Under the pieces are notes generated by a model. It saw only the letters and a list, made by a program, of their open reading frames with translations, had not been told where the DNA came from and made no database searches. Positions 12,350-59,481 of a DNA stretch of 64,000 bases are shown one piece after another (positions within the stretch are counted from its first letter, which is position 1; every line of letters begins with the position of its first letter). This DNA is from an uncultured Verrucomicrobiae bacterium (GTDB taxonomy: Bacteria > Verrucomicrobiota > Verrucomicrobiia > Limisphaerales > UBA11358): NCBI GenBank assembly GCA_963835625.1, contig CAWIGO010000007.1, positions 75,415 to 139,414 on the forward strand, read 5' to 3'. A program made the position numbers and the translations under genes.

Positions 12350-13261
12350 ATGTCCGACGCAGCTGCGGCAGCGCAAACGCCCTCAAAGGCGCAGGTTTTT
12401 CTCCGCCGGTTAATCACCTCGGTGATTCTCTGGACGGTGATCATCGCCGCTTTGTTCTCCGGCAACGCGTTGATTTCAAATGGCGTATTCATTCTCATCA
12501 TTGTCTTTCTCGCGCTGGCCGGTCTCATGGAATTTTATGGACTCGCCGAAAAATGCGGCCTTGTTTGCTTCAAATGGTGCGGCCTGCTCGGCGGCGTGCT
12601 GCTGATGGTCGGGACATTTTTGAATTTGACCGGCCATCTTGGCACTTCGGGTTCGCCGGCGCGCGTCAACGATTTTGAAACGGGCTTTCTCATTTTATTC
12701 GTGCTCGGTTTGTGTCTGCGACAATTATTGTCAAAGTCCAACGCGGTGGGAATTGCGGCCATTGCGACGACGCTCTTCGGTCTCATGTATGTGCCGTGGC
12801 TGTTGAACTTCATCCAAAAAATCAATTTTTTCCCCGGCGTGGACGGCAAATTCTTTCTGCTCTACTTCGTATTGGTCACAAAGTTCAGCGACACCGGCGC
12901 GTATGTCGTCGGCTCGCTCATCGGCAGGCACAAGATGATGCCGCGCATCAGCCCTGGCAAAACCTGGGAGGGCTTTGGCGGCGCGATTTTATTTTCGACG
13001 GTGGCGAGCATCGTGTTCGTGTTTTTTTTTGGCGATAAAATGGCGGGCATGAATTGGTTTCACGCCGTTGTGCTCGGCGTTTTGTTTGGTTTGACCGCCG
13101 TCGTCGGCGATTTGATTGAGTCGCTATTCAAACGCGAAGCCGGCGTAAAAGATTCAGGCAATTTTTTCCCCGGCATCGGCGGCATTCTCGATTTGCTCGA
13201 CAGTCTTTTGTTCAACGCGCCCATCATGTATCTCTATTTACGGCACATCCTGATCCAATGA
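12350..13261 (+). CDS. cdsA: phosphatidate cytidylyltransferase (CDP-diglyceride synthase)
   Basis: Multi-TM protein with the C-terminal CdsA signature (SDTGAYVVGSLIGRHKM.PRISPGKTWEG...GDLIESLFKREAGVKDSG..FPGIGGILD..DS). I chose the ATG at 12350 over the track start at 12299, which lies inside a hairpin repeat. Confidence 0.9.
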   Translation: MSDAAAAAQTPSKAQVFLRRLITSVILWTVIIAALFSGNALISNGVFILIIVFLALAGLMEFYGLAEKCGLVCFKWCGLLGGVLLMVGTFLNLTGHLGTSGSPARVNDFETGFLILFVLGLCLRQLLSKSNAVGIAAIATTLFGLMYVPWLLNFIQKINFFPGVDGKFFLLYFVLVTKFSDTGAYVVGSLIGRHKMMPRISPGKTWEGFGGAILFSTVASIVFVFFFGDKMAGMNWFHAVVLGVLFGLTAVVGDLIESLFKREAGVKDSGNFFPGIGGILDLLDSLLFNAPIMYLYLRHILIQ

Positions 13262-13346
13262 AGAATGCAGAATGCAGAATGCAGAATGGAATTCCCGTAC
13301 TGCGCGGTGAAAAATTTCTTCATTCTTCATTCTGCCTTCTGCCTTT
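13259..13346 (+). repeat. heptamer hairpin: (GAATGCA)x3 tract paired with a downstream TTCATTC/TGCCTTC tract
   Basis: The left arm is aaGAATGCAGAATGCAGAATGCAGAATGg (13261-13289). The right arm is TTCTTCATTCTTCATTCTGCCTTCTGCCTT (13317-13346). By hand alignment they pair over about 24 positions with a few mismatches. It lies between cdsA and dxr. Confidence 0.85.
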
Positions 13347-15976: not shown

Positions 15977-17767
15977 ATGCGCTACTGCGAATCCCCGTTT
16001 TTTTACCACCGGCGAAAAACCCGTGGAATTGTCATCGGTGATCCCAAGAACGGCGGTGTCATCATCGGTGGCGATCATCCGGTCGTCATGCAGTCCATGA
16101 TTACGTGCGACACGATGGACACCGCCGAGTGCGTGAAGCAAACGCTCGACCTCGTCGCCGTCGGCTGCCAAATCGTCCGCATCACCGCGCCAACCGTGAA
16201 GGACGCGGCGAATCTGCAGAGCATTGTCGCCGAGCTTCGCAGGCGCGGCTGTAACGTACCAATCGTTGCCGACATCCATTTCAAGCCCGAAGCCGCCATG
16301 GAAGCGGTGAAGTGGGTCGAAGTCGTGCGTGTCAATCCGGGCAACTACGCCGATTCCAAGAAATTCGCAATCAAGGAATACAGCGATGAACAATACGCCG
16401 CCGAGTTGAAGCGCATTGAGGAAAAATTCACGCCTCTGGTCATCGAGTGCAAACGATTGAAGCGCGCGTTGCGCATCGGCACCAACCACGGCTCGCTTTC
16501 CGACCGCATCATGAACCGTTACGGCGATACGCCGCTCGGCATGGTCGAGAGCGCGTTGGAATTCGCCCGCATCTGCCGCAAGCACGACTTCCATAACTTC
16601 AAGTTCTCGATGAAAGCGAGCAATCCCAAGGTGATGATCGAATGTTATCGGCTGCTCGTCGCGCGTCTGAACGAACTTGGCGCGGACTGGAATTATCCGA
16701 TTCATCTCGGTGTGACCGAGGCGGGCGGGGGCGAGGACGGGCGGATCAAGTCCGCTATCGGCATCGGCTCCCTGCTGTGCGACGGTCTGGGCGACACGAT
16801 TCGGGTTTCGCTCACGGAAGATTCACCGCGCGAAATCGAGGTCTGCCGCGATTTGCTGGCACAAATACCCGCATTGTCGAATTCAGAATTCAGGATTCGG
16901 GATTCAGAATTTCCATTCGACCCCTTCCGCTTTGAGCGTCGAAAAACGCCGGAAGTTTCTCTGAACGAAAATTTCAAATGCGGCGGCGAACAACTCATCC
17001 GCGTCGTCGTTGCCCGCGCCACGTGGGACAAGGTTGCCTCGAAGATTCGCCCGAAGGACGACGTGAAACCGGAGGCAGTCTATGAAGACTTGAATGTCGC
17101 GGAACTCGACCCAACAAAAGATTTCGAAATTAACCCCGACTCTGCGTCGGGGCTCGTCACCGTCAAAGACGGTGTCTCGCTGCCTGTGATTACTGCTTTT
17201 CGTCTGCTCGCTGCGAAGCTAAAACGCCTTGGCCGGAACAATCCCATTCTGCTCAAGGATTGCCTCAACTTTGAGCCGGCGCCGCTGGAGCCGAAGATTG
17301 CCCTGTTGCGGACATCGGTCGTCATCGGTTCGCTGCTGGCGGACGGCATCGGCGATGCGATTTTGATTCGCGTGGAATCCGGCGGAGGACAATCACTGCG
17401 GCTGACTTACAACATTTTGCAGGCAGCGGGCTGTCGTTCGTTCAAGACCGATTATGTCGCGTGCCCGTCGTGCGGACGGACACTGTTCAACCTGCAGACC
17501 GTGACGGCGCGCATCAAGGCGCGCACGGAGCATCTCAAGGGCGTTAAAATCGCCATCATGGGCTGCATCGTGAATGGCCCGGGCGAAATGGCCGACGCGG
17601 ATTTCGGCTACGTGGGCGGCGCGCCCGGCAAGATCAACCTCTACGTTGGAAAAACGCCGATCAAATTCAACATCCCCGAAGCCGAAGCCGTGGAACGCCT
17701 TGTGGATTTGATTCGCGAACACGGGAAATGGGTTGAGCCGGAAGCTAAAGTTGAATCACTAAAATAG
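15977..17767 (+). CDS. ispG: 4-hydroxy-3-methylbut-2-enyl-diphosphate synthase, long form with an insertion domain
   Basis: Has the N-terminal TIM-barrel part (VRITAPTVKDAANL, VADIHF, VRVNPGN) and the C-terminal 4Fe-4S part (YVACPSCGRTLFNL...IMGCIVNGPGEMADADFGYVG). The ATG at 15977 lies 5 nt after the rseP stop. Confidence 0.93.
   Translation: MRYCESPFFYHRRKTRGIVIGDPKNGGVIIGGDHPVVMQSMITCDTMDTAECVKQTLDLVAVGCQIVRITAPTVKDAANLQSIVAELRRRGCNVPIVADIHFKPEAAMEAVKWVEVVRVNPGNYADSKKFAIKEYSDEQYAAELKRIEEKFTPLVIECKRLKRALRIGTNHGSLSDRIMNRYGDTPLGMVESALEFARICRKHDFHNFKFSMKASNPKVMIECYRLLVARLNELGADWNYPIHLGVTEAGGGEDGRIKSAIGIGSLLCDGLGDTIRVSLTEDSPREIEVCRDLLAQIPALSNSEFRIRDSEFPFDPFRFERRKTPEVSLNENFKCGGEQLIRVVVARATWDKVASKIRPKDDVKPEAVYEDLNVAELDPTKDFEINPDSASGLVTVKDGVSLPVITAFRLLAAKLKRLGRNNPILLKDCLNFEPAPLEPKIALLRTSVVIGSLLADGIGDAILIRVESGGGQSLRLTYNILQAAGCRSFKTDYVACPSCGRTLFNLQTVTARIKARTEHLKGVKIAIMGCIVNGPGEMADADFGYVGGAPGKINLYVGKTPIKFNIPEAEAVERLVDLIREHGKWVEPEAKVESLK
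16879..16913 (+). repeat. five tandem heptamers (GAATTCA GAATTCA GGATTCG GGATTCA GAATTTC) inside ispG
   Basis: Read directly from the sequence. The units are built on the GAATTC palindrome, so the tract is self-complementary. It is translated in-frame as SNSEFRIRDSEFP. Confidence 0.9.
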
Positions 17768-21756: not shown

Positions 21757-23490
21757 ATGAAATTTCACTGGTCGCTCGCGCCACCGCAACCTCTGCTCGC
21801 CGGTCAACTGGCCGCGCAACTCAAAATCCCGCCGCTGCTTGCCCAATGCCTGCTGAATCGCGTCCCGCAGATGGCGGGAGAGCCGGTTGCCATCCGGGAT
21901 TTTTTGCAGCCGCGCCTGAAAAATCTCGCCGACCCGTTTTTGCTGCCGAACATGAACGCCGCCGTCGGGCGATTGCTTCATGCTCGCGGGCAAAACGAAC
22001 CACTCGTGATTTTTGGCGATTACGATACGGACGGCGTCACTTCCACTGCGCTGCTCGTTGAAGTTTTGCGCACGCTTGGCTGGAAGGTGGATTTTTATTT
22101 ACCGAACCGCATGGACGAAGGCTACGGCTTGAGTCAGGACGGCGTCGAAAATTGCCTCAAAAAATTTCCTGTAACACTCCTGCTGGCCGTGGACTGTGGT
22201 TCCACCGCCGTTGGAACCATTTCATGGCTGCGCAAACGCGGCGTGGATGTGATTGTTCTCGATCATCATCAAATTTCCTCGCCCGCGCCGGAGGCCGTTG
22301 CGCTGGTCAATCCACAACTCTCAACTTTCAACTCTCAACCATCAACCGTTTTTGCCGAACTCTGCTCCGTTGGTCTCGCTTTCAAACTCGCGCACGCCCT
22401 GGTCAAACGCGGACGCGAAATAAATCTGCCCGGCGCGGCGGAATTCGATTTACGCCCGCTGCTCGATTTGGTCGCGCTGGGCACCATCGCCGACCTCGTG
22501 CCGCTCATCGGCGAAAACCGCATTCTTGTTTCCGCCGGTTTGCAGCGGCTGAACACGACAAAACGGCCTGGTTTGATTGAGCTCAAACGGGTCGCGCAGT
22601 GCCCGCAAATACTCGGCACTTACGAAGTCGGTTTTCAACTGGCACCACGCTTGAACGCCGCCGGTCGGCTCGAATCAGCCGAGGAATCGTTGCGCCTGCT
22701 CCTGGCGCGCGATCTGGCCGAAGCGATGCCCATCGCCCAAAATCTGGATTCGCGCAATCGCGAACGCCAAAAAATCGAGCGTGACATCGTCGAGGAAGTT
22801 GTCGGCATGGTACGCGCGAAGTTTGATCCGGAAAAAGACTTCGTCATCGTCGAAGGACAATTGCTCTGGCACATCGGTGTTGTCGGCATCGTCGCGTCGC
22901 GTGTGTTGCAGGAGTTTTACCGGCCCACCATCATCATCGGTGGCGAGGGTGACGAATGGCGTGGTTCGGGACGCAGCATCGCGGGTTTCGATCTGGCCGC
23001 CGCGTTGCGCGAATGCGACGATTTGCTCGTGCGACACGGTGGGCACGCAATGGCCGCGGGCTTGAGCATTCATCCGGACAAAATTGACGCGCTGCGGGAG
23101 CGATTGAATGAATTGGCGCGCCGCGCATTGAAACTGGAGGATTTGCAACCGTCATTGCGCCTCGATGCGGAAGTCGGCCTGGACGAAATGAATTTTGAAA
23201 CGCTGAACGAGCTGGCGCGTTTGAAACCGACGGGGCAGGGGAATCCCGGCGTGCAATTCTGCGCGCGCAATCTCACCCACGCGCGTCCGCTCCAGCGCAT
23301 CGGCGCGGACAGGCGGCATGTCAAGATGTGGGTTACGGAAGGCGCAGCCACACTCGAGGCTGTTTGGTGGAACGGCGGTGAAGCATCCTTGCCGGTTGGA
23401 AAATTTGATCTGGCGTTCGCGCCGCAAATCAACGAGTTCAATGGCCGCCGCACGGTGCAATTGAAAGTTTTGGATTGGCGGGCGGCGTGA
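21757..23490 (+). CDS. recJ: single-stranded-DNA-specific exonuclease RecJ
   Basis: Has DHH motifs (IFGDYDTDGVTS, LLAVDCGS, VIVLDHH) and the DHHA1 motif (GGHAMAAGLS). Confidence 0.93.
   Translation: MKFHWSLAPPQPLLAGQLAAQLKIPPLLAQCLLNRVPQMAGEPVAIRDFLQPRLKNLADPFLLPNMNAAVGRLLHARGQNEPLVIFGDYDTDGVTSTALLVEVLRTLGWKVDFYLPNRMDEGYGLSQDGVENCLKKFPVTLLLAVDCGSTAVGTISWLRKRGVDVIVLDHHQISSPAPEAVALVNPQLSTFNSQPSTVFAELCSVGLAFKLAHALVKRGREINLPGAAEFDLRPLLDLVALGTIADLVPLIGENRILVSAGLQRLNTTKRPGLIELKRVAQCPQILGTYEVGFQLAPRLNAAGRLESAEESLRLLLARDLAEAMPIAQNLDSRNRERQKIERDIVEEVVGMVRAKFDPEKDFVIVEGQLLWHIGVVGIVASRVLQEFYRPTIIIGGEGDEWRGSGRSIAGFDLAAALRECDDLLVRHGGHAMAAGLSIHPDKIDALRERLNELARRALKLEDLQPSLRLDAEVGLDEMNFETLNELARLKPTGQGNPGVQFCARNLTHARPLQRIGADRRHVKMWVTEGAATLEAVWWNGGEASLPVGKFDLAFAPQINEFNGRRTVQLKVLDWRAA
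22314..22348 (+). repeat. five tandem TCAAC-nn heptamers inside recJ
   Basis: The units are ACAACTC TCAACTT TCAACTC TCAACCA TCAACCG, translated in-frame as PQLSTFNSQPSTV. Confidence 0.85.
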
Positions 23491-23491
23491 T

Positions 23492-23569
23492 GGTCCAGGG
23501 TCCGAAGTCTGAAGTCCAAAGCGGTCGCGAACATTTTAGACTTTGGACTTTGGACTTTGAACTTTAGAC
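23492..23569 (+). repeat. GTCCAAA/TTTGGAC heptamer hairpin between recJ and ispD
   Basis: The left arm is GTCCAGG GTCCGAA GTCTGAA GTCCAAA (23493-23520). The right arm is TTTAGAC TTTGGAC TTTGGAC TTTGAAC TTTAGAC (23535-23569). Unit-by-unit pairing uses several G:U/U:G wobbles on the + strand. Confidence 0.9.
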
Positions 23570-23577
23570 TGGTTCCC

Positions 23578-31435: not shown

Positions 31436-32299
31436 ATGAGTCCAAAGTCCAAAGCCCAAAGTCCGAAGTTATCTGATGTGCCCCCTGCCACGTGTCACAC
31501 GTCACTTATCACGCGCTATCTCACGATTTATGCCGCGCTGTGGAAAACTTCCGTGACGCGCGAAATGTCATTCAAAGGCAATTTCGTTCTCTGGATCGTG
31601 GTCGAATTGCTCTGGTTCGGGCTGCAACTCGCTTTCGTCGGTGTACTTTTCAGCCAAACCAACACCATCGGCACATGGACAGTGTGGCAGGTGGTGCTGC
31701 TCACCGGCACGAGCAATTTCATCCAGGAAATTTACCAGGCGTTCCTTCTCGTGAACTGCACGAACCTCTCGGAACTCGTCCGCACGGGTAAAATGGATTT
31801 TTTACTGCTGCTGCCGGTCAACACGCGCTTCCTCGTTTCGACGCGGCAGGTGGACCTGCCGTCATTTGCCAATGCGGCGTTCGCCGTTTGCGTCATGTTT
31901 TTTGCGGCGGGCAAACTGCATTTGCACCCAACTACCGCGCAGTTGCTCGCCTTTGCCGCCTTGTGTGTCATCGGTCTTTTGGTGCATTACTCGCTGATGT
32001 TCATGCTCGCCTCGGTGAGTTTTTGGACCGTGCGCGCGCAAGGCATCGTGTGGGGCTACTACAATCTGTTCAACATCGCGCGGATGCCGGATGAAGCGTT
32101 TCGCGGCGCGTTCAAGGCCGTGTTCACCTTCGCCCTGCCGGTGTTGCTCGTGTCCAACGTGCCCGTGCGCGTGCTGGCGGACAAATTAACTTCGCCGTCC
32201 GCATGGCTGGTGCTGCTCGGCCTGGCTGTTGTCTGGGCGCTCATCTCCGAATGGTTCTGGCGCTTCTCCATCCGCCGTTACACCAGCGCGAGCACGTGA
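31436..32299 (+). CDS. ABC-2 family transporter permease (second subunit)
   Basis: Its ATG directly follows the upstream TGA. It is a polytopic protein (REMSFKGNFVLWIVVELLWFGLQLAF...), COG3694-like. The first ~11 codons (MSPKSKAQSPK) are encoded by a GTCCAAA heptamer tract, so the true start could be further downstream. Confidence 0.65.
   Translation: MSPKSKAQSPKLSDVPPATCHTSLITRYLTIYAALWKTSVTREMSFKGNFVLWIVVELLWFGLQLAFVGVLFSQTNTIGTWTVWQVVLLTGTSNFIQEIYQAFLLVNCTNLSELVRTGKMDFLLLLPVNTRFLVSTRQVDLPSFANAAFAVCVMFFAAGKLHLHPTTAQLLAFAALCVIGLLVHYSLMFMLASVSFWTVRAQGIVWGYYNLFNIARMPDEAFRGAFKAVFTFALPVLLVSNVPVRVLADKLTSPSAWLVLLGLAVVWALISEWFWRFSIRRYTSAST
31440..31467 (+). repeat. four tandem GTCCAAA-family heptamers at the 5' end of the second ABC-2 permease ORF
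   Basis: The units are GTCCAAA GTCCAAA GCCCAAA GTCCGAA, read directly and encoding SPKSKAQSPK. The upstream TTTGGA (31424-31429) can pair with TCCAAA (31441-31446) across the stop/start junction. Confidence 0.85.
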
Positions 32300-39461: not shown

Positions 39462-41219
<1,758 letters not shown>

Positions 41220-47699: not shown

Positions 47700-50258
47700 C
47701 TAAGTTTTCTCCGGCTTCACGATGGAAACCACGAACGCATCCGGCTTGAGGTATTTCTGCGCGGCGGCCTTGATTTGTTCGAGCGTGACGGCTTCGTATT
47801 TCGCGTCGTCCAGTTCCGCGCGCCGGTAGCCGAGGCCGTAAAGTTCGTCGAGCGCGGTCAGGGACGCGAGATCGCCGAGATCCTGCCGCGCGATTTTCTT
47901 CTGGCCGATGATTTTGGCCTTCGCACGTTTGAGTTCCCCGGCGGTCAAGCCTTCGGTGCGGAGCAATTCAGCTTCCTTGAGCAATTCCGTTTCGACCTGC
48001 CCGGCCTTCGACGGTTCGGTGCCGGTATAAAAAGCAAAATAACCGGGCACGAGTCCGGCAAAATTCTGCGCTCCGACGTAATATGCCAGGCCCAATTTGT
48101 CGCGAACACGCAGAAACAGCCGCGAGCCGAGGTCGCTGCAGGATTCCTGGATCAATTCCAGCGCGTAACGGTCGTCGCTGTGCATCGTTGTTCCAGGAAA
48201 CCCGATGACGAGCACGGCCTGTTTTTTGTCACGAACTTCTTCGACGCGTTTCGGTGAATTCAAGGTAGGGCGCGTTGTCCCTAACGCGCCGCCGGACGGC
48301 TCGCTGGGGACAGCGAGCCCTACCTGTTTCCAATTCGCAAACGCCTTTTCGACGGCGGCTTTGACTCCCGTCGTTTTTACGTCGCCGTAAACGGCAAGAA
48401 CGCAATTGTTCGGCGCGGTCAATTTTTTGTGAAACAATTTCAGGTCGGAGGCCTGGAATTTCGAGACGGTTTCTTCCGTGCCGAGCGGGTCAAGGCCGTA
48501 ACCGACATTGCCGAACATTGTGCGGCACATGGCGACGCTCGCGCTTTTGAGCAAATCGTCCTTGCGCGCGCGGATGCCGGCGATTTGCACCTCGCGTTCG
48601 CGTTCCAAGTCGCCTGCGGGAAAAGTCGGGTTCAGCAAAACGTCGGCGAGCAAATCCAGGCCGGTGGCGAAATCGCTGCTCAACACCTCGACATTCACGC
48701 CAAAGCTGTTGTTGCCGCCGTAACTGTCAATGCTGCCGCCCACGGATTCGATTTCCGTGGCGACTTTCCCGGCGGTGCGGCGCTTGGTGCCCTTGAGCAG
48801 CATTTTGGCAAGCAATTGCGTGATGCCGTTGTTCCCGGCGGTCTCGGCCAGCACGCCGCCTTTGAACGCGGCTCGAAATTCGACGAATGGCAGACGATGA
48901 TCCTCCTTTACGAGCAGGCACAAACCGTTCGCCAATTCAATTTTTTGAATCGCTTGGTCACTGCTCACCTCAACGTCAGCCGAAATTTTCGGCGCGGCGC
49001 CGTCCGGCAGCAGCGCGTAAAGCGTGCGGTTTTCCGGCGTAAGATATTCGCGCGCAACACGTTGAATGTCGCCTGGCGTGACTCGTTTGACGGCGGCAAG
49101 ATAGCGCTCGGAAAAATTCAAATCATTTGCCGCCATCCAATTTGCGCCGAGGTTTTGCGCCTGGCCTTCCATCGTCTTGCGCATGGCAAGCGTGGCGGAA
49201 ATGAACTGTTTGACGGCTTTGCCCAGTTCTTCAGATGACACGGGCGACGATTTCATTTTTTCGACTTCAACGAGCATGGCGTCGCGCGCGGCGGGAAATT
49301 TATCCGCATCGGCGATGGCGCTCATGCCAAACAATCCCGAATTGCCGGGATTGTAAGTCCACGCGTCAACGTGATGCACGACGCCTTGTTTCTCACGCAC
49401 TTGCTGGAAAAGCCGCGAGCTGCGGCCGCCGCCGAGCAGCACGGCAAGCACGCCGAGAATCGGCACGTCGGGATGGCGTAGTTCGGGAATGTGCCACGCA
49501 AAATGCAGATGGCCAAGTTCAATGGGCGCTTCCTCAACGATTTCGCGCGGCGCGGTTTGTTTTGGTTCGCTGGGTAGAACCATTGGCGGAGTCGCGCGCG
49601 ATTTGGTTTTCGCATAAGACTCGCGGATTTGCGCGATCACGTCCTCGTTTTTCACATCGCCCGCGACGACATAGAAAACGTTGTTCGGCGCGTATTTTTC
49701 GCGGTAGTAGCCGTGGATGTCGTCGGGCTTCAGTTCGTTGAAAATGTCGGGATAGCCGATGACGGTGAAACGATACGGACTGCGCGTATAGGCGGTCTCG
49801 AACAGACGGCGGCTCGAACGAAGTCCAGGATCGTCCTGGCCCATGTCCATTTCGCGGCGGATGACATCCATTTCCTTCGCGAGTTCGTCCGGCGGCAGCG
49901 TCGCGTGCTGCATGATGTCGCAAAGGATGTCGATTGCCGTGTGCGCGCCGGTGTTCGGCACGTCAATGTGATAGACCGTGCGGTCGAAGCTCGTGTAGGC
50001 GTTCATGCAACCGCCGGCTTCCTGCACTTCCTGATCAATCCGGCTGCCGGGTCGCGTGGTCGTGCCCTTGAACAGCATGTGTTCGAGCACGTGCGACAGT
50101 CCCGCGCCGAGCCATTTGCCTTCGTGGATGCTGCCGGCCATGCACCACGCCTGCGCCGACACGACCGGCGCACTGTGATCCTCGCGCACGATGATGGTCA
50201 GGCCGTTTTCGAGCGTGGTGAGCGTGATACCGGGTGGAAACGAGGGGATTTCACTCAT
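47700..50258 (-). CDS. M16-family zinc peptidase, double-length (two insulinase-like halves)
   Basis: Has HVLEHMLFKGT (the HxxEH inverzincin motif) near the N-terminus. The second half repeats the M16 fold without the motif. It carries an in-frame GC-rich hairpin element (48264-48324). Confidence 0.9.
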   Translation of the reverse strand: MSEIPSFPPGITLTTLENGLTIIVREDHSAPVVSAQAWCMAGSIHEGKWLGAGLSHVLEHMLFKGTTTRPGSRIDQEVQEAGGCMNAYTSFDRTVYHIDVPNTGAHTAIDILCDIMQHATLPPDELAKEMDVIRREMDMGQDDPGLRSSRRLFETAYTRSPYRFTVIGYPDIFNELKPDDIHGYYREKYAPNNVFYVVAGDVKNEDVIAQIRESYAKTKSRATPPMVLPSEPKQTAPREIVEEAPIELGHLHFAWHIPELRHPDVPILGVLAVLLGGGRSSRLFQQVREKQGVVHHVDAWTYNPGNSGLFGMSAIADADKFPAARDAMLVEVEKMKSSPVSSEELGKAVKQFISATLAMRKTMEGQAQNLGANWMAANDLNFSERYLAAVKRVTPGDIQRVAREYLTPENRTLYALLPDGAAPKISADVEVSSDQAIQKIELANGLCLLVKEDHRLPFVEFRAAFKGGVLAETAGNNGITQLLAKMLLKGTKRRTAGKVATEIESVGGSIDSYGGNNSFGVNVEVLSSDFATGLDLLADVLLNPTFPAGDLEREREVQIAGIRARKDDLLKSASVAMCRTMFGNVGYGLDPLGTEETVSKFQASDLKLFHKKLTAPNNCVLAVYGDVKTTGVKAAVEKAFANWKQVGLAVPSEPSGGALGTTRPTLNSPKRVEEVRDKKQAVLVIGFPGTTMHSDDRYALELIQESCSDLGSRLFLRVRDKLGLAYYVGAQNFAGLVPGYFAFYTGTEPSKAGQVETELLKEAELLRTEGLTAGELKRAKAKIIGQKKIARQDLGDLASLTALDELYGLGYRRAELDDAKYEAVTLEQIKAAAQKYLKPDAFVVSIVKPEKT
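48264..48324. repeat. GGTAGGG...CCCTACC nested hairpin element inside the M16 peptidase gene
   Basis: The layout is GGTAGGG, then the hairpin CGCGTT-gtccct-AACGCG, then CCGCCGGACGG, then the hairpin CTCGCTG-ggga-CAGCGAG, then CCCTACC. On the sense strand it reads VGLAVPSEPSGGALGTTRPT. Confidence 0.9.
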
Positions 50259-51931: not shown

Positions 51932-53668
51932 ATGAAGTGGTCACAAACCCTGATTCCGACTCTCCGTGAAGCGCCGGCTGACGCGGAAATCCTTTCGCAC
52001 AAGCTCCTGCTTCGCGCCGGGCTGGTTCGCAAACTTGCCGGCGGCGTTTATACTTTTCTGCCGCTCGGCTTGCGCGCCCTGCGCAAGGTGGAACAAATCG
52101 TCCGTGAGGAAATGGACCGTGCGGGCGCGCTTGAACTGCTCATGCCCGCGCTCCAGCCGCCGGAAATCTGGCAGCAAAGCGGCCGTTACGAAACTGCACG
52201 CAATGTTTTGTTCAAGGTGAAAGACAGCGCCGGCCGCGAATGGGTTCTAAGCCCGACGGCTGAAGAGGTCATCACCTTGCTGGCCGCCGCCGAGATCAAT
52301 TCCTATCGGCAATTGCCGAAAAATTTTTATCAAATCAGCGTCAAGTTCCGCGACGAAATTCGCCCGCGTTTTGGGCTGATGCGCGCGCGAGAATTTATCA
52401 TGAAGGACGCGTACAGCTTTGACGTGAGTGATGAGGCGGCGCAGGCCACCTATCAAAAAATGTACGAAGCTTACTCGCGCATTTTCACGCGGTGCGGGCT
52501 GAAAACGTTTCCCGTTGAGGCCGACACCGGCGTCATCGGCGGCAAATTCTCGCACGAATTCATGGTGCCCGCCGAGACCGGCGAGGATGAGGTTGTTTAT
52601 TGTGAGGGTTGTGGTTACGCGGCGAACATCGAAAAGGCGACGAGTGGTGTGCCAGAGTCCAAAGTCCAAAGTCCAAAGTCCAAGGTCGAAAAGTTTGCCA
52701 CACCGGGTGTGACAACCATCGAAGCGCTTGCAAAAGCACCTTACAACGTTCCCGCCGAATGCCAAATCAAGACACTCGTTTATATCGTCGAAAGCAAACC
52801 TGCGCTGATTTTGCTTCGTGGTGATGATCAATTAAACGAAGCCAAGCTTGCGGGCGCGCTCGGCACGCCGACGTTTCGCTCGGCGACGCCGGAGGAAATT
52901 AGTAATGCGATGGGCGCGCATCCGGGCAGTTTGGGCGCAGTTACGAGTACTTTAAAAAAGTCGGACATTCCGATTTACGCCGACGAACATTTGCGGGGCG
53001 CAAATGGCATGACAACGGGCGCAAACGAAGATGGTTTCCACCTCCGCAACGTTTCCATCGAACGCGACATCAAAGTGACGCAGTGGTTTGATTTGCGCGT
53101 CGTGCAAACGGGCGAACCATGCGCGAAATGTCCCGATAAATCGGGACTGAAAATCCGCCGTGCGATAGAAGTCGGCCACGTGTTCAAGCTCGGCACGAAA
53201 TACAGCGAGAAATTGGGTGCAACATTTTTGGACGAATCCGGCGCGCGCAAGCCCGCCGTCATGGGCTGCTATGGCATCGGTGTCACGCGGACATTGCAGG
53301 CGGTCGTCGAGCAATGCAATGACAAGGACGGCATCATCTGGCCGGCCAGTGTCGCGCCCTACACGGTTTGCATCACGCCATTGAACGTTGCGCCGGACAG
53401 TCAGGCAATGAAACTGGCGGAGAAAATCCACGATGAACTCACCACGCGCGGCGTGGATGTGATACTGGACGACCGCGATGAACGTCCCGGCGTGAAATTC
53501 AAAGATTCCGAACTAGTCGGCTTTCCCATTCGCATCGGCATTGGTGAAAAATCACTGGCGAAGGGCGAAGTGGAAATCAAACCGCGCGGCGGTTCGTTGC
53601 AATCCGTGAAAGCCGGCAGCGCGGTGGAAGCGGTGATGAAATTACTCGGCGAAAACAGCCGGGGTTAA
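51932..53668 (+). CDS. proS: proline--tRNA ligase (bacterial type with an editing insertion)
   Basis: Starts MKWSQTLIPTLRE, then FRDEIRPRFGLMRAREFIMKDAYSF, SHEF, and GCYGIGVTR. It carries a GTCCAAA heptamer tract encoded as SKVQSPKSKV. Confidence 0.95.
   Translation: MKWSQTLIPTLREAPADAEILSHKLLLRAGLVRKLAGGVYTFLPLGLRALRKVEQIVREEMDRAGALELLMPALQPPEIWQQSGRYETARNVLFKVKDSAGREWVLSPTAEEVITLLAAAEINSYRQLPKNFYQISVKFRDEIRPRFGLMRAREFIMKDAYSFDVSDEAAQATYQKMYEAYSRIFTRCGLKTFPVEADTGVIGGKFSHEFMVPAETGEDEVVYCEGCGYAANIEKATSGVPESKVQSPKSKVEKFATPGVTTIEALAKAPYNVPAECQIKTLVYIVESKPALILLRGDDQLNEAKLAGALGTPTFRSATPEEISNAMGAHPGSLGAVTSTLKKSDIPIYADEHLRGANGMTTGANEDGFHLRNVSIERDIKVTQWFDLRVVQTGEPCAKCPDKSGLKIRRAIEVGHVFKLGTKYSEKLGATFLDESGARKPAVMGCYGIGVTRTLQAVVEQCNDKDGIIWPASVAPYTVCITPLNVAPDSQAMKLAEKIHDELTTRGVDVILDDRDERPGVKFKDSELVGFPIRIGIGEKSLAKGEVEIKPRGGSLQSVKAGSAVEAVMKLLGENSRG
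52657..52691 (+). repeat. five tandem GTCCAAA-family heptamers inside proS
   Basis: The units are GTCCAAA x3, GTCCAAG and GTCGAAA. The tract is flanked by GGTGTG (52645) and CACACC (52703) arms and is translated as SKVQSPKSKVEK. Confidence 0.9.
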
Positions 53669-56128: not shown

Positions 56129-56791
56129 TCATCTTGGGGTGGTTTGATTTTCGTTCAGCAACGCCTTCGCCCGGCCTTTTGGCAACCGGCCAAGGTGGAA
56201 AATCAAAAAGCCGTGCAAAAACTCCCGCAGTTCGATGGTTTGGGCGTCGGTCAATTTCAATCGCGCACACGCAGGCCAATGACCTTGAACCAAAACTTGA
56301 ATGATTTTTTTTGCACCGGGCGAGAGTCTGGTTTTTTCCAAATTCGGCTTCAAACCGAGTTCGTGGAGCAGTTTCAATTCAAAGGTGAAAACCGTTTGCG
56401 GCTTTGCGGGTTGTTCACAAAGATGGCAAAAAAAACCGAGCGTTAAATCGTAAACGGCGGGCAAGGGCGTCTCGGTTTCCGTCGCTTGTTCGACAAACGC
56501 CGTGGCGTAGGCAGCTTGATGCAGCAGCAGAACATTCCGCCGCAACGCGCTGTGCGTTTCGCGCAAGCTGACTTCGCGGAGTATGTGCAAATCGGAACGC
56601 CGGCTGCGGCTGAAGGAAAAATCGGCGAGATAGAACAAATCCAGCCTGCCGAGAAACGGTGATTTGGGGCGATGCGCACCCTTGGCAACGGTGGCGATTC
56701 GGCCAAAGTTCGGCGTGAGCCAGTGGACGATAAGGCTGGTTTCTGTGAGTGATCGCGTGCGCAGAATCAAGCCGGTTGCAGATTCAATCAT
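56129..56791 (-). CDS. recO: DNA repair protein RecO
   Basis: The ATG at 56791 gives MIESATGLILRTRSLTETSLIVHWLTPNFGRIATVAKGAHR.... It overlaps the upstream stop as ATGA. The N-terminal 54 residues of the track ORF are discarded. Confidence 0.85.
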   Translation of the reverse strand: MIESATGLILRTRSLTETSLIVHWLTPNFGRIATVAKGAHRPKSPFLGRLDLFYLADFSFSRSRRSDLHILREVSLRETHSALRRNVLLLHQAAYATAFVEQATETETPLPAVYDLTLGFFCHLCEQPAKPQTVFTFELKLLHELGLKPNLEKTRLSPGAKKIIQVLVQGHWPACARLKLTDAQTIELREFLHGFLIFHLGRLPKGRAKALLNENQTTPR

Positions 56792-57450
56792 TGAATTTTT
56801 GGTGGCGTCCCGTGTTCCGGAAAAATCGAACCGAGACTGACAATGTATTTGATGCCTTCGGCAACGGACATGTCGAGTTTGGTGACTTTTTCCTCCGGTA
56901 CAAGAATGAGAAAACCGGATGTGGGATTCGGTGTTGTAGGCACAAAGACGCAAACCACTTTTCCCTTCATCTTTTGCTGCACTTCGTTGTGCTGTTCGCT
57001 CGTAATGAAACCAATGGTGTGCGTGCCTTCGCGCGGAAATTCCACAAGCACGACGGTTTTGAACGAGCCTTTTTTGCCGGTTGTGAACGCCTCGTTGACC
57101 TGCCTGATGGCGCCGTAAAATTTATTCAGCAACGGCACGTGCATCAACACGCGTTCCACCCATTCGATCATTTTTTTACCGAAATAATTCCGTGCCAGCT
57201 GGCCCGCCGCGCTGATCAGCAAAATCGCCACCATCAAGGCAACGAGACTCCAATACCAATGCATCGGACCCTCGCCGTTATTTCGATGCGTGATGGTTTT
57301 GGGAATGAAAATAAGCAACGTGTCAGTGACGTTGGAGATGGTGAAGAACAACCAAACCAAAAGCGCGATTGAAATCACTCCTGGCAGGACAATAACCAAA
57401 CCGGTCGCGAAATTCGCCCGCCAACGGGCGAAGAAGCTTTTCTGTTCCAT
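56788..57450 (-). CDS. DUF502-family membrane protein
   Basis: Has two N-terminal TM segments, then a conserved core (PLLNKFYGAIRQV...VVLVEFPREG.HTIGFIT...VFVPTTPNPTSGFL). Confidence 0.8.
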   Translation of the reverse strand: MEQKSFFARWRANFATGLVIVLPGVISIALLVWLFFTISNVTDTLLIFIPKTITHRNNGEGPMHWYWSLVALMVAILLISAAGQLARNYFGKKMIEWVERVLMHVPLLNKFYGAIRQVNEAFTTGKKGSFKTVVLVEFPREGTHTIGFITSEQHNEVQQKMKGKVVCVFVPTTPNPTSGFLILVPEEKVTKLDMSVAEGIKYIVSLGSIFPEHGTPPKIQ

Positions 57451-57470: not shown

Positions 57471-57965
57471 TCAGAGTTTGCTCAAGGGAAAGCGGCGGGT
57501 GATTTCACGCAACAGGCGGTTTTCTTCGCGCTTCATTTTGCATCGCGCGGTGGCGCGCAAATCATCGTGGCCAAGCAGGTGCAGAACCCCATGAACGATA
57601 TAACGCGCGGTTTCCGATTGCCAGCTCACACCAAACTTTCGTGCCTGCAAAACCGCCTCGTCCATGCACACGAAAATTTCGCCGTGCAAGGTAGGGCGCG
57701 CTCTCCGCAGCGCGCCGGACCTGGCGGCGGGCAGGGGACTGCCCGCCCTACCTTCCGTGTGGTAATCAAATGTAATCACGTCCGTTGAACCTTTGTGATG
57801 GAGAAATTTTTCGTTCAACCGTGTTATTTCCTGGACGGCAACGAGATGGATGCCAAGTTCCGCCTTTTCGATCTTCAAATCAGTGAGCAATGCAGTGGTG
57901 ATCTGTTTCAGCAAACGCCGGTTGATTTTCCGCACGCGCTGGCGGCTGGCGATGGTGACGTTCAT
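57471..57965 (-). CDS. ybeY: rRNA maturation endoribonuclease YbeY
   Basis: Has the zinc motif HGVLHLLGHDD. An in-frame 63-nt GC-rich hairpin element encodes ...GRAGSPLPAARSGALRRARPT.... Confidence 0.9.
   Translation of the reverse strand: MNVTIASRQRVRKINRRLLKQITTALLTDLKIEKAELGIHLVAVQEITRLNEKFLHHKGSTDVITFDYHTEGRAGSPLPAARSGALRRARPTLHGEIFVCMDEAVLQARKFGVSWQSETARYIVHGVLHLLGHDDLRATARCKMKREENRLLREITRRFPLSKL
57690..57752. repeat. GGTAGGG...CCCTACC nested hairpin element (63 nt) inside ybeY
   Basis: The layout is GGTAGGG, then the hairpin CGCGCT-ctccgc-AGCGCG, then CCGGACCTGGCGGC, then the hairpin GGGCAG-ggga-CTGCCC, then GCCCTACC. The architecture is the same as at 48264-48324. Confidence 0.9.
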
Positions 57966-58002: not shown

Positions 58003-58992
58003 TCATGGGCTCGCAGCTCGTCCCTCCTCCGGAGTTTTTCCCGTGCGATGCTCTTCGTAAGCCGCGATGATGCGCTGTACGAGCGGGTGGCGGACGACGT
58101 CGCGTTTGCCGAGCTCGACAATGGCGATGCCTTCGGTGTTTTTGAGCACACGATGCGCTTCGAGCAGGCCGGAATGTTTGTGCGGCGGCAAATCAATCTG
58201 CGTTTCATCGCCGGTGATGACTGCCCTTGAGCCGTGGCCGAGGCGCGTGAGAAACATCAACATTTGCTCGGTCGTCGAATTTTGCGCCTCGTCCAAAATG
58301 ACGAAGGCGTTGTTGAGCGTGCGCCCGCGCATGTAAGCCAGCGGCGCAATTTCAATCGTCCCGCGCTCGGTATGCTTTTGAATTTCCTCGGCAGGCAGCA
58401 TGTCGTGCAACGCATCGTGCAGCGGACGAAGATACGGCGTGATTTTTTCGTAAAGGTCGCCGGGCAAAAATCCGAGTGCTTCGCCGGCCTCAACCGCCGG
58501 GCGCGTCAGAATCAACCGGGAAACTTTTCCGTCACGCAACGCGGCGAGCGCCATCGCCACCGCCAGATACGTCTTGCCCGTGCCTGCCGGGCCGACGCCG
58601 AACGTAACGTCATGCTTCCGAATCGCGTCGAGATATTTTTTTTGGCCGACGGTTTTGGCCGTGACACCAGGCTTGCGCTCGTGCGTCAAAATCCGGTCAT
58701 TGACCAATGCCTTGAGCGTTTCGGCGCCCTCGTGTTTCACAACGTTGAGCGCGTGGATGAATTCGCGATTCCGCACCGGAGAGCCGGTTTCAAGCAAACT
58801 TTCGAGCGAAACGAAAAGCTGTTTTGCGCGTTCAATTGCGTCAGCCGGACCTTTCAGTTTGATCCAGCCTTCGCGCGCCGTGGCTTTGACGCCAAGTTCG
58901 GTTTCCAGCGACTGAAGATTGCGCGGTTCGTGATTGAAAAGCCGCTGTGCGGCGCGCGCATTCTCGAAATGAAGAGTTTCGGATGCCATCAA
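58003..58992 (-). CDS. phoH: PhoH-family ATPase
   Basis: Has Walker A (GPAGTGKTYLAV), ILTRPAVEAGE.LGFLPG, and Walker B (FVILDEAQN). It is adjacent to ybeY, as in many bacteria. Confidence 0.9.
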   Translation of the reverse strand: MMASETLHFENARAAQRLFNHEPRNLQSLETELGVKATAREGWIKLKGPADAIERAKQLFVSLESLLETGSPVRNREFIHALNVVKHEGAETLKALVNDRILTHERKPGVTAKTVGQKKYLDAIRKHDVTFGVGPAGTGKTYLAVAMALAALRDGKVSRLILTRPAVEAGEALGFLPGDLYEKITPYLRPLHDALHDMLPAEEIQKHTERGTIEIAPLAYMRGRTLNNAFVILDEAQNSTTEQMLMFLTRLGHGSRAVITGDETQIDLPPHKHSGLLEAHRVLKNTEGIAIVELGKRDVVRHPLVQRIIAAYEEHRTGKTPEEGRAASP

Positions 58993-58995
58993 AAA

Positions 58996-59481
58996 TTATT
59001 TTGCCAGTTCCGCGCGAAGTTTCCCGGCCAGTTCATTCAACGCCTGCGGCAAAACAGTCGTGTTCGCGATTACTGGCATAAAATTTGTGTCGCCGTTCCA
59101 GCGTGGCACGACGTGAACATGCAAATGTTCTGTGACGCCTGCGCCGGCAACCTTGCCGAGATTGATGCCGATGTTGAAACCGTCGGGCTTCATCACCTGT
59201 GTCAGCGCATTGACGCAACGGCGCGTGAGTTTCCATAAATCGCCGAGTTCTTCATCCGTCAAACCGTTCAAGTCGGCGACTTGTTTGTAAGGCACGACCA
59301 TCAAATGCCCGCCATTGTAGGGATACGTATTGAGCAATGCGAAACAGGTGCGGTCGCGCGCGATGACACGGTTGGCCTCGTCGTCCGAGGACTGCGCGAT
59401 GCGCGTGAACAGGCTCGCGTCGGACTGCGGCTTGGGCGCGAGGATGTATTCGATCCGCCACGGTGCATGCAGTGATTCCAT
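58996..59481 (-). CDS. HIT-family nucleotide hydrolase/transferase
   Basis: Has the histidine triad HLHVHVVPR. Confidence 0.88.
   Translation of the reverse strand: MESLHAPWRIEYILAPKPQSDASLFTRIAQSSDDEANRVIARDRTCFALLNTYPYNGGHLMVVPYKQVADLNGLTDEELGDLWKLTRRCVNALTQVMKPDGFNIGINLGKVAGAGVTEHLHVHVVPRWNGDTNFMPVIANTTVLPQALNELAGKLRAELAK

Follow-up and report, generated by a model that had tools for sequence, protein, structure and literature searches.

Repetitive palindromes (REPs) tagged with GTAG or CGTC were defined by Di Nocera, De Gregorio & Rocco (2013, BMC Genomics 14:522; PMC3733652). Intragenic GTAG REPs are most numerous in Opitutus terrae (Verrucomicrobia; families GTAG-17/18/19), where dimers lying within genes encode ~15-30 aa, e.g., VGPALAAGREQRARLPAAGERPPY; ~70 intragenic cases were tabulated, YbeY is absent from the table of O. 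terrae hosts, and REPs showed no simple correlation with tyrosine transposase genes (PMC3733652). In the REPIN-RAYT system (Bertels & Rainey 2011, PMC3116915), two inverted REPs pair into one long hairpin, modules number in the hundreds per genome and persist for long in a lineage, and the RAYT, usually single-copy, is flanked by the same REPs. TIRYT genes, by comparison, encode Y1 transposases and lie between terminal inverted repeats of unrelated sequence (PMC3733652). The Rickettsia palindromic elements (RPEs) are the classical in-frame case, selfish DNA residing in coding genes (PMC3733652, its refs 13, 14, and 49).

We analyzed a 64,000-nt stretch of DNA, called the window throughout, from an uncultured Verrucomicrobiae bacterium whose genome is a 23-contig draft of 2.34 Mb (55% G+C, 93% complete, 4.4% contamination). 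Inside its ybeY gene lies a 63-nt element that is most probably a head-to-head dimer of GTAG-tagged REPs, REPIN-like in layout; the whole is best explained, in our judgment with good confidence, as a tolerated REP dimer riding as an in-frame passenger in a permissive loop of YbeY. Since intragenic GTAG REP dimers have been known from Opitutus terrae since 2013, the ybeY case is a further example of a described habit. What is new here is that the dimer has been retained across species while its modules change less than synonymous sites do, and that different elements turn over at one site.

The family to which the dimer belongs has the defining traits of GTAG-type REPs: a terminal GTAG tag, an adjoining palindromic stem-loop, and high-copy dispersed inverted dimers. 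As in the published GTAG REPs (PMC3733652), the terminal head stands beside a stem-loop of 6-10 bp, many copies are head-to-head dimers with short spacers, intergenic copies lie just downstream of ORFs, and dozens are in frame inside known genes; the present family differs in a head extended to GGTAGGG, in its stem sequences, and in its host, an uncultured peat-type Verrucomicrobiota lineage and not Opitutus. It resembles the REPIN-RAYT system (PMC3116915) in the pairing of two inverted REPs into one long hairpin, in the hundreds of modules per genome, and in long persistence in a lineage, but no RAYT flanked by the same REPs was found here, the ~154 exact-head modules comprise 75 types with no one master sequence, and a large share of the copies is intragenic. 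With the RPEs it shares palindromes in frame in still-functional housekeeping genes that tolerate the added segment, whereas the RPEs are set apart, by description, as longer (RPE-1) or of CGTC type (RPE-4/6) and as belonging to an alphaproteobacterial endosymbiont (PMC3733652).

Anatomy of the Element in ybeY

The features of the ybeY locus and of the sister copy in the window are as follows.

57471..57965, minus strand: ybeY coding sequence, 164 aa, with a Pfam match; no other YbeY gene in the genome
57561..57593, minus strand: metal-binding motif HGVLHLLGHDD (H125, H129, D135), conserved in all 36 aligned relatives
57690..57752, no strand assigned: REP dimer, head-to-head, 63 nt, terminal inverted repeat GGTAGGG / CCCTACC
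57726..57752, minus strand (gene sense): REP module 1, GGTAGGG-CGGGCAG-TCCC-CTGCCCG-CC; GTAG head, 9-bp stem, 4-nt loop
57717..57725, no strand assigned: inter-module spacer, 9 nt; diverges between species about as neutral sites do
57690..57716, plus strand (head on the plus strand): REP module 2, GGTAGGG-CGCGCT-CTCCGC-AGCGCG-CC; 8-bp stem
58003..58992, minus strand: phoH-like gene, directly upstream of ybeY
58996-59481, same strand as ybeY: HIT gene
56788-57450, same strand as ybeY: DUF502 gene
48264..48324, no strand assigned: sister copy, a REP dimer of 61 nt; lies in the variable linker between the domains of an M16 peptidase and is in frame with it
47700..50258, minus strand: M16 peptidase ORF, two-unit, 852 aa; hosts the sister dimer, entered in codon phase 2

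On the plus strand, positions 57690-57752 read GGTAGGGCGCGCTCTCCGCAGCGCGCC-GGACCTGGC-GGCGGGCAGGGGACTGCCCGCCCTACC, 63 nt that resolve into two inverted 27-nt modules, each a GTAG head plus a hairpin of 8-9 bp, flanking the 9-nt spacer. Translated in the minus-strand frame of ybeY, the element yields GRAGSPLPAARSGALRRARPT, 21 residues rich in Gly, Arg, Pro, and Ala that occupy YbeY positions 72-92 between DVITFDYHTE and LHGEIFVC; tryptic peptides predicted over the insert and its junctions include ...FDYHTEGR, AGSPLPAAR, and PTLHGEIFVCMDEAVLQAR. The mRNA-sense strand is predicted to fold into a 7-bp outer stem around two hairpins (-47.6 kcal/mol, z=-2.8), and the plus strands of both window copies fold into one long hairpin each (-50 to -52 kcal/mol). 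The pattern GGTAGGG-N30-60-CCCTACC has two matches in the window against 0.00 expected from shuffles.

An earlier, sequence-only reading of this DNA had reported the 63-nt GGTAGGG...CCCTACC element inside ybeY, and its sequence and position are exactly as described there; the other descriptive statements, a perfect-ended nested hairpin included, hold as well. Its picture of a dispersed palindrome in frame in a compact RNase likewise stands, although the identity of the element as a GTAG-type REP dimer had been missed and an implied rule, that copies in coding sequence are selected for lengths divisible by 3, fails against the census given below. The same reading placed the sister copy at 48264-48324 in another frame, and this is borne out: the copy enters its ORF in codon phase 2, versus phase 0 in ybeY, and is read one base later (CAG GTA GGG, giving Q-VGLAVPSEPSGGALGTTRPT, i.e., Q-VGLAV...TTRPT). 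Although the M16 dimer measures 61 nt, the linker is only 8-9 residues longer than the ~20 residues usual among relatives, so some of the original linker was lost. In the orthologous M16 linkers of two relatives (L122 = G016, L123 = G004), decayed REP dimers of the form GGCAGGG...CGCGCCCTGCC are seen, and in a third (G003, L124) a different long inverted repeat, GCGCCGGTCTCCGACCCGGC...GCCGGGTCGGAGACCGGCGC.

A Dispersed Family of GGTAGGG Dimers

Perfect-ended GGTAGGG/CCCTACC copies number 75-79 genome-wide, versus 1 for the reversed control, and 79 span 51-121 nt. With one head mismatch allowed, ~190 hairpin modules occupy 121 loci, 85 of them dimers and 36 singles, spread over contigs. The GGTAGGG head (positions 0-6) is invariant in 156-162 of 162 dimer ends, stems measure 8-10 bp, and loops measure 1-8 nt; 30 types fall into two main size classes and all are self-complementary, a descriptive statement because modules were selected for pairing. 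Module 1 of the ybeY dimer has only two exact copies in its own genome. The RPEs are not known to share sequence with the GGTAGGG family. As a separate observation, two contigs of the genome (C21:12220-13623 and C23:11116-12519) carry the same xseA with the same 52-nt REP dimer, which means that the assembly is redundant there or that the bin contains a second strain.

The family has sharp boundaries, and the DNA that abuts them is biased: 134 of 162 dimer ends have A or T at position -1, and A/T richness extends over positions -1 to -6. Direct repeats of 1-2 nt, A..A or T..T, occur at dimer ends in weak excess (44 and 18 of 81). A model in which target-site duplication keeps the reading frame was considered and rejected because no duplication of fixed length that could explain frame keeping is present at dimer ends.

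The family extends to relatives. The pattern GGTAGGG-N37-67-CCCTACC occurs 75 times in the own genome and 1-40 times in most genomes of the genus (controls, 0-4), and is present in 5 of 16 other families sampled in the order. The exact 27-mer of module 1, with C or T allowed at one loop position, recurs in at least 118 stretches of GTDB genomes, whose titles name Verrucomicrobiota, Limisphaerales, "subdivision 3," Udaeobacter, and Kiritimatiellae, many of them from peat (SPRUCE, palsa); by a rough figure, 21 of 51 dimers at these loci lie in long ORFs. The own genome shares 77-80% nucleotide identity with named MAGs, which together with those titles points to a Verrucomicrobiota MAG. Some records titled "uncultured Klebsiella" or "Bifidobacteriaceae" (L152, L160, L163, and others) also contain the REP module. 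They are 72-77% identical to the own genome over kilobases, so their names look wrong and we do not claim spread beyond Verrucomicrobiota.

Placement of the copies was judged against gene calls from an in-house ORF and codon-usage caller (1893 genes, 85.6% coding), which recovered the known genes around ybeY. Among the 85 dimers, 42 are intergenic, 11 lie over an ORF end, and 32 (~38%) are inside ORFs. On the GTAG-REP trait of being mostly extragenic and near ORF 3' ends the picture is mixed: 49% of dimers fall in the 14% of DNA that is non-coding (p=5e-24 versus random placement), many of them 0-10 nt from a stop codon, yet 38% of dimers are in ORFs. In co-directional (tandem) spacers the element is typically found 0-10 nt past the upstream stop codon, and convergent spacers are over-represented among the intergenic copies; REPs typically show both of these features.

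At least sixteen dimers are robustly intragenic, with at least 60 codons of positive coding score on each side; the M16 peptidase and YbeY are among their hosts. Ten hosts are named by an NCBIfam equivalog (IleS, RecG, LigA, UvrC, MutY, MnmE, TrpE, TilS, MnmA, and XseA), with matches that run across the insert or stand on both its sides, and all of these except TrpE are counted among the DNA-repair or RNA-related hosts that are also frequent for published GTAG REPs (PMC3733652). Only two entry phases are used, phase 0 (GGT AGG G.. = GR...) and phase 2 (xxG GTA GGG = xVG...); the third would read TAG, and its absence is partly built into ORF-based detection. Thus, even a small (2.3-Mb) genome of free-living type can have about one-third of its REP dimers inside genes.

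The ybeY copy measures 63 nt, an exact multiple of 3, and the sequence-only reading by implication took copies within coding sequences to be enriched for such lengths, naming a lack of enrichment as what would refute it. The census contradicts the implied rule: the three length classes modulo 3 hold 5/6/5 of the 16 robust intragenic dimers and 9/18/13 of 40 intergenic ones (chi-square p=0.78), i.e., only 5 of 16 intragenic copies are multiples of 3. Divisibility by 3 was therefore rejected as a family rule, and the 63 nt seen in ybeY are no trait of the family as a whole. The reading frame is kept by the junctions and the surrounding linker, not by element length. The value that our analysis adds to the published record lies in this census, with ~38% of dimers in ORFs and 16 robust hosts among housekeeping genes, in the rejection of the 3n-length idea, and in the module conservation and element turnover described below.

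Proposed Origin and the Search for a Mobilizer

We posit that the dimer entered an A/T-rich patch encoding a surface loop, in a single event or in a few. Such an insertion would have survived because its phase avoids the TAG in GGTAGGG, the net change in length came to a multiple of 3, and the loop can accommodate extra residues; the dimer would then have stayed on as a passenger whose 21 added residues play no role in YbeY at the peptide level. By analogy, we assume that a Y1 (RAYT-type) transposase spread the family.

The only Y1_Tnp (PF01797) gene of the genome (C2:7852-8307) encodes an IS200-like protein of 151 aa. It lies between inverted copies of a 28-nt repeat, GACAATAGCCCGGCGTTTnAACGCCGGG (C2:7730-8490), an arrangement like that of TIRYT genes. 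GACAATAGCCCGGCGTTTnAACGCCGGG has no copies in the genome beyond these two and bears no relation to the GGTAGGG family, so this gene is not the obvious mobilizer. In the own genome (93% complete), no GGTAGGG modules flank the Y1_Tnp gene and no transposase-like gene lies between neighboring REP loci. Among relatives, none of the 49 Y1 loci examined, a subset of their many Y1 genes, is REP-flanked, and none of 80 loci carrying ybeY module 1 contains a Y1 gene. With no REP-flanked Y1 gene found, transposase-mediated spread is an analogy and not a finding.

Turnover in the YbeY Loop

The insertion site was surveyed in 37 genomes of the same order (the own genome being G000) and, for closer relatives, in metagenome contigs. 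Outgroup families have a loop of 8-12 residues at the insert position, and within the genus the loop is a mosaic of different elements. The same GGTAGGG dimer is found at the same YbeY site in G022 and, with decayed ends, in G006; G011 and G016 carry other GTAG-type dimers with heads GTAGGACAGGC..., G001 and G004 carry other inverted-repeat elements, and several species carry tandem 7-nt arrays. Among the metagenome contigs, L069, which shows 89% amino-acid identity and is the sister of the own genome (support 99/98), has the same dimer. L070, L071, L072, L073, L074, and L081 have the dimer at the same codon position of ybeY, and module 1 is identical at this site in L070, L072, and L073.

Our preferred reading requires one or a few insertions followed by descent, and the closest carriers agree with it: their 9-nt spacer shifts stepwise (GCCAGGTCC, GCCAAGCCC, GTCAAACCC, GCCAAACTC), which fits descent from a single insertion, and the sisters G000 and L069 both carry the dimer. 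Elsewhere, the record looks different. At least five unrelated element types, plus the 7-nt arrays, are found at exactly one position across lineages, and the M16 linker shows the same pattern. Two contigs, L083 and L086, have ybeY genes that are ~99% identical outside the loop yet contain wholly different inverted-repeat elements at the same codon position, with ~40 nt of extra divergence just downstream of the element; this pair indicates a recent element replacement, perhaps an allele replacement by recombination. The single-gene YbeY tree is poorly resolved and too weak for counting events, but carrier G006 groups with non-carriers in it. Part of the carrier distribution may therefore reflect repeated insertion or recombination instead of one old event. 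Taken further, these observations could mean that the site is a true hot spot of insertion or replacement, or is subject to allele exchange, with repeated independent arrivals in place of one inherited ancient insertion; given the stepwise spacers and the shared dimer of the sister pair, we consider this possible but doubtful.

The 7-nt arrays in the YbeY loop consist of 3-4 tandem copies, always give a loop of 17 aa, and are seen in many relatives. Their units vary by lineage (GCGGAAT, TCGGAAT, GCGGAAA, CCCCAGA, AGCCAGA, and GCCGGAC) and apparently change in concert. The window of the own genome has nine period-7 arrays of 3.6-5.7 copies. The loci concerned are listed here.

7-nt arrays in the YbeY loop of relatives: L007, L009, L010, L012, and L014 (G003, G018, G009, G012, and G010, respectively); L080, L082, L085, and L088-L090
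Period-7 arrays in the window, among the nine: 13257-13288, 16879-16911, 22315-22339, 23535-23570, 31439-31469, 39471-39500, 40803-40835, and 52652-52691

In L069 and L073, the loop of REP module 2 itself contains a nested segment of 30 nt, CCGGTCTTCGCAAGGCTTCGCCCAGGCGAGG, which keeps the frame and lengthens the insert to 31 aa. A motif like CCGGTCTTCGCAAGGCTTCGCCCAGGCGAGG is also part of a composite element on a contig of the own genome (C7:32937-33054) and probably represents another small repeat family.

Conservation of the Modules

Between G000 and L070, 0 of 54 module positions have changed, versus 36% of 4-fold sites (P=2.5e-11). The modules are likewise slower than 4-fold sites in comparisons of G000 with L072, L073, and L081 (P 3e-14 to 3e-7), 4-fold divergence across these comparisons being 36-56%. 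Where stems do change, the changes are paired (CAG..CTG to CTG..CAG; GCGCGCT..AGCGCGC to GCGCGAT..ATCGCGC) and alter the peptide, replacing S,L by C,Q and GALRRARPT by GAMGTSRPT or GAHGVTRPT. Modules are thus either nearly fixed or pair-changed at the cost of residues, and the conserved thing is the palindrome, not the peptide. In some lineages, decay is evident in both the ybeY and the M16 copies, with heads turning from GTAG to GCAG, GCGG, or GTGG and stems becoming mismatched.

We infer that the palindrome is kept either because a DNA or RNA hairpin is under constraint or because copies elsewhere in the family serve to correct it. Under a purely passive passenger, conservation of the modules above synonymous sites is without explanation, and passive tolerance does not explain the turnover of elements at a fixed codon position either; both bear on how REPs are maintained.

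A stronger view is that the intragenic palindrome functions as a nucleic acid and is kept by selection instead of being merely tolerated: a host factor could bind or cut the DNA or mRNA hairpin, for instance in mRNA stability or translation pausing or as a domesticated Y1 nuclease. The unchanged modules beside 4-fold sites that differ by 36-56% and the compensatory stem changes made in spite of altered amino acids speak for such a role, as do the scarcity of donors for simple copy correction (module 1 having two exact copies here), the recurrence of the exact 27-mer across many Verrucomicrobiota genomes (118 or more stretches), and the intergenic copies placed directly past stop codons, like RNA 3' hairpins. 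Yet the ybeY and M16 copies are visibly decaying in several lineages, close relatives have unrelated elements or none in the same loop, a search of Rfam returned no RNA family (the best match is at chance level, E=0.95), and neither a binding factor nor a cognate transposase was found. We rate a selected nucleic-acid function as rather unlikely.

A broader proposition joins constraint with turnover: surface loops of housekeeping proteins in this lineage would be landing pads at which palindromic families and 7-nt arrays interchange, and the intragenic hairpins would be selected as nucleic acid. It draws on the swaps between ~99% identical alleles, on 0/54 module changes against 36-56% at 4-fold sites, and on the identical 27-mer across Verrucomicrobiota, and we offer it as speculation that is probably wrong in this full form. 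If it were true, REP hairpins would be functional DNA or RNA motifs in coding sequence, or a built-in source of variation in protein loops.

YbeY with Its Insert

Apart from its insert, ybeY is an intact gene. It stands in a co-directional HIT-PhoH-YbeY-DUF502 cluster; phoH next to ybeY is the usual neighborhood. The product matches Pfam YbeY PF02130 (E=3.4e-26, 92 bits), the only YbeY match in the own genome (93% complete), and a 36-sequence alignment shows all 14 invariant residues to be present, including H125, G126, H129, G132, and D135. At the third metal-ligand position, all 36 relatives have Asp135 whether or not they carry an insert. This position (codon 135, 57561-57563) is Asp throughout the order (HGVLHLLG[YH]DD), whereas a His stands there in the enzymes from E. 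coli, Aquifex, and S. aureus (HGxxHLxGYDH).

The AlphaFold2 model of YbeY (mean pLDDT 91, pTM 0.86) depicts the insert as a disordered beta-hairpin loop that links strands 63-67 and 92-100, with residues 72-81 below 50. Foldseek aligns the model to 1oz9, 1xm5, and 7y7o with TM 0.75-0.84; in the last of these, S. aureus YbeY, the connecting segment at the insert position is naturally ~20 residues long. The ortholog alignment and structure model, both proposed as checks in the sequence-only reading, thus place the insert in a surface loop and leave the motif and the YbeY fold intact. Across seven insert-bearing relatives, the ybeY core has dN/dS of 0.12-0.25 at dS of 0.2 to >1, so the gene is under purifying selection with the insert in place, and conservation of the frame suggests that the element is translated through.

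Such retention invites the idea that the insert was domesticated as an Arg-rich flexible loop that helps YbeY, an RNA-binding enzyme, to bind rRNA or the ribosome. The peptide is indeed basic (ARSGALRRARPT) and has stayed in frame in species separated by dS ~1. This idea is nevertheless improbable: the residues change (S,L to C,Q; GALRRARPT to GAMGTSRPT or GAHGVTRPT) where the DNA hairpin stays, copies of the same repeat family elsewhere are translated in different phases, the loop in relatives is either filled with unrelated sequence or only 8-12 aa long, and AlphaFold2 gives the insert no structure.

That ybeY is a pseudogene, or its insert an assembly artefact made at a repeat, is hardly credible: the assembly is a 23-contig draft with 4.4% contamination and the related contig L094 breaks at the element, but the ORF is open with an intact motif, the gene is single-copy, dN/dS is 0.12-0.25, and the same structure occurs independently in at least nine other assemblies. 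The sequence-only reading had named a pseudogene with a second, intact copy elsewhere as the finding that would overturn it; a single ybeY match and the dN/dS values led us to reject this possibility.

For the tolerated dimer, then, the YbeY locus offers a well-dated example of selfish palindromic DNA within an important RNase gene that leaves the gene unbroken. It also bears on annotation: odd loops rich in Gly, Arg, and Pro, as well as spurious "hypothetical proteins," are accounted for in Verrucomicrobiota MAGs by inserts of this kind, and REP inserts are not to be read as pseudogenes or novel domains. Contig L094 (Ga0116128_1019527) has the 3' half of a 91%-identical ybeY, which starts within the REP insert; the sequence on its 5' side is unrelated and encodes another REP-like peptide, so the contig was either rearranged or assembled as a chimera at the repeat.
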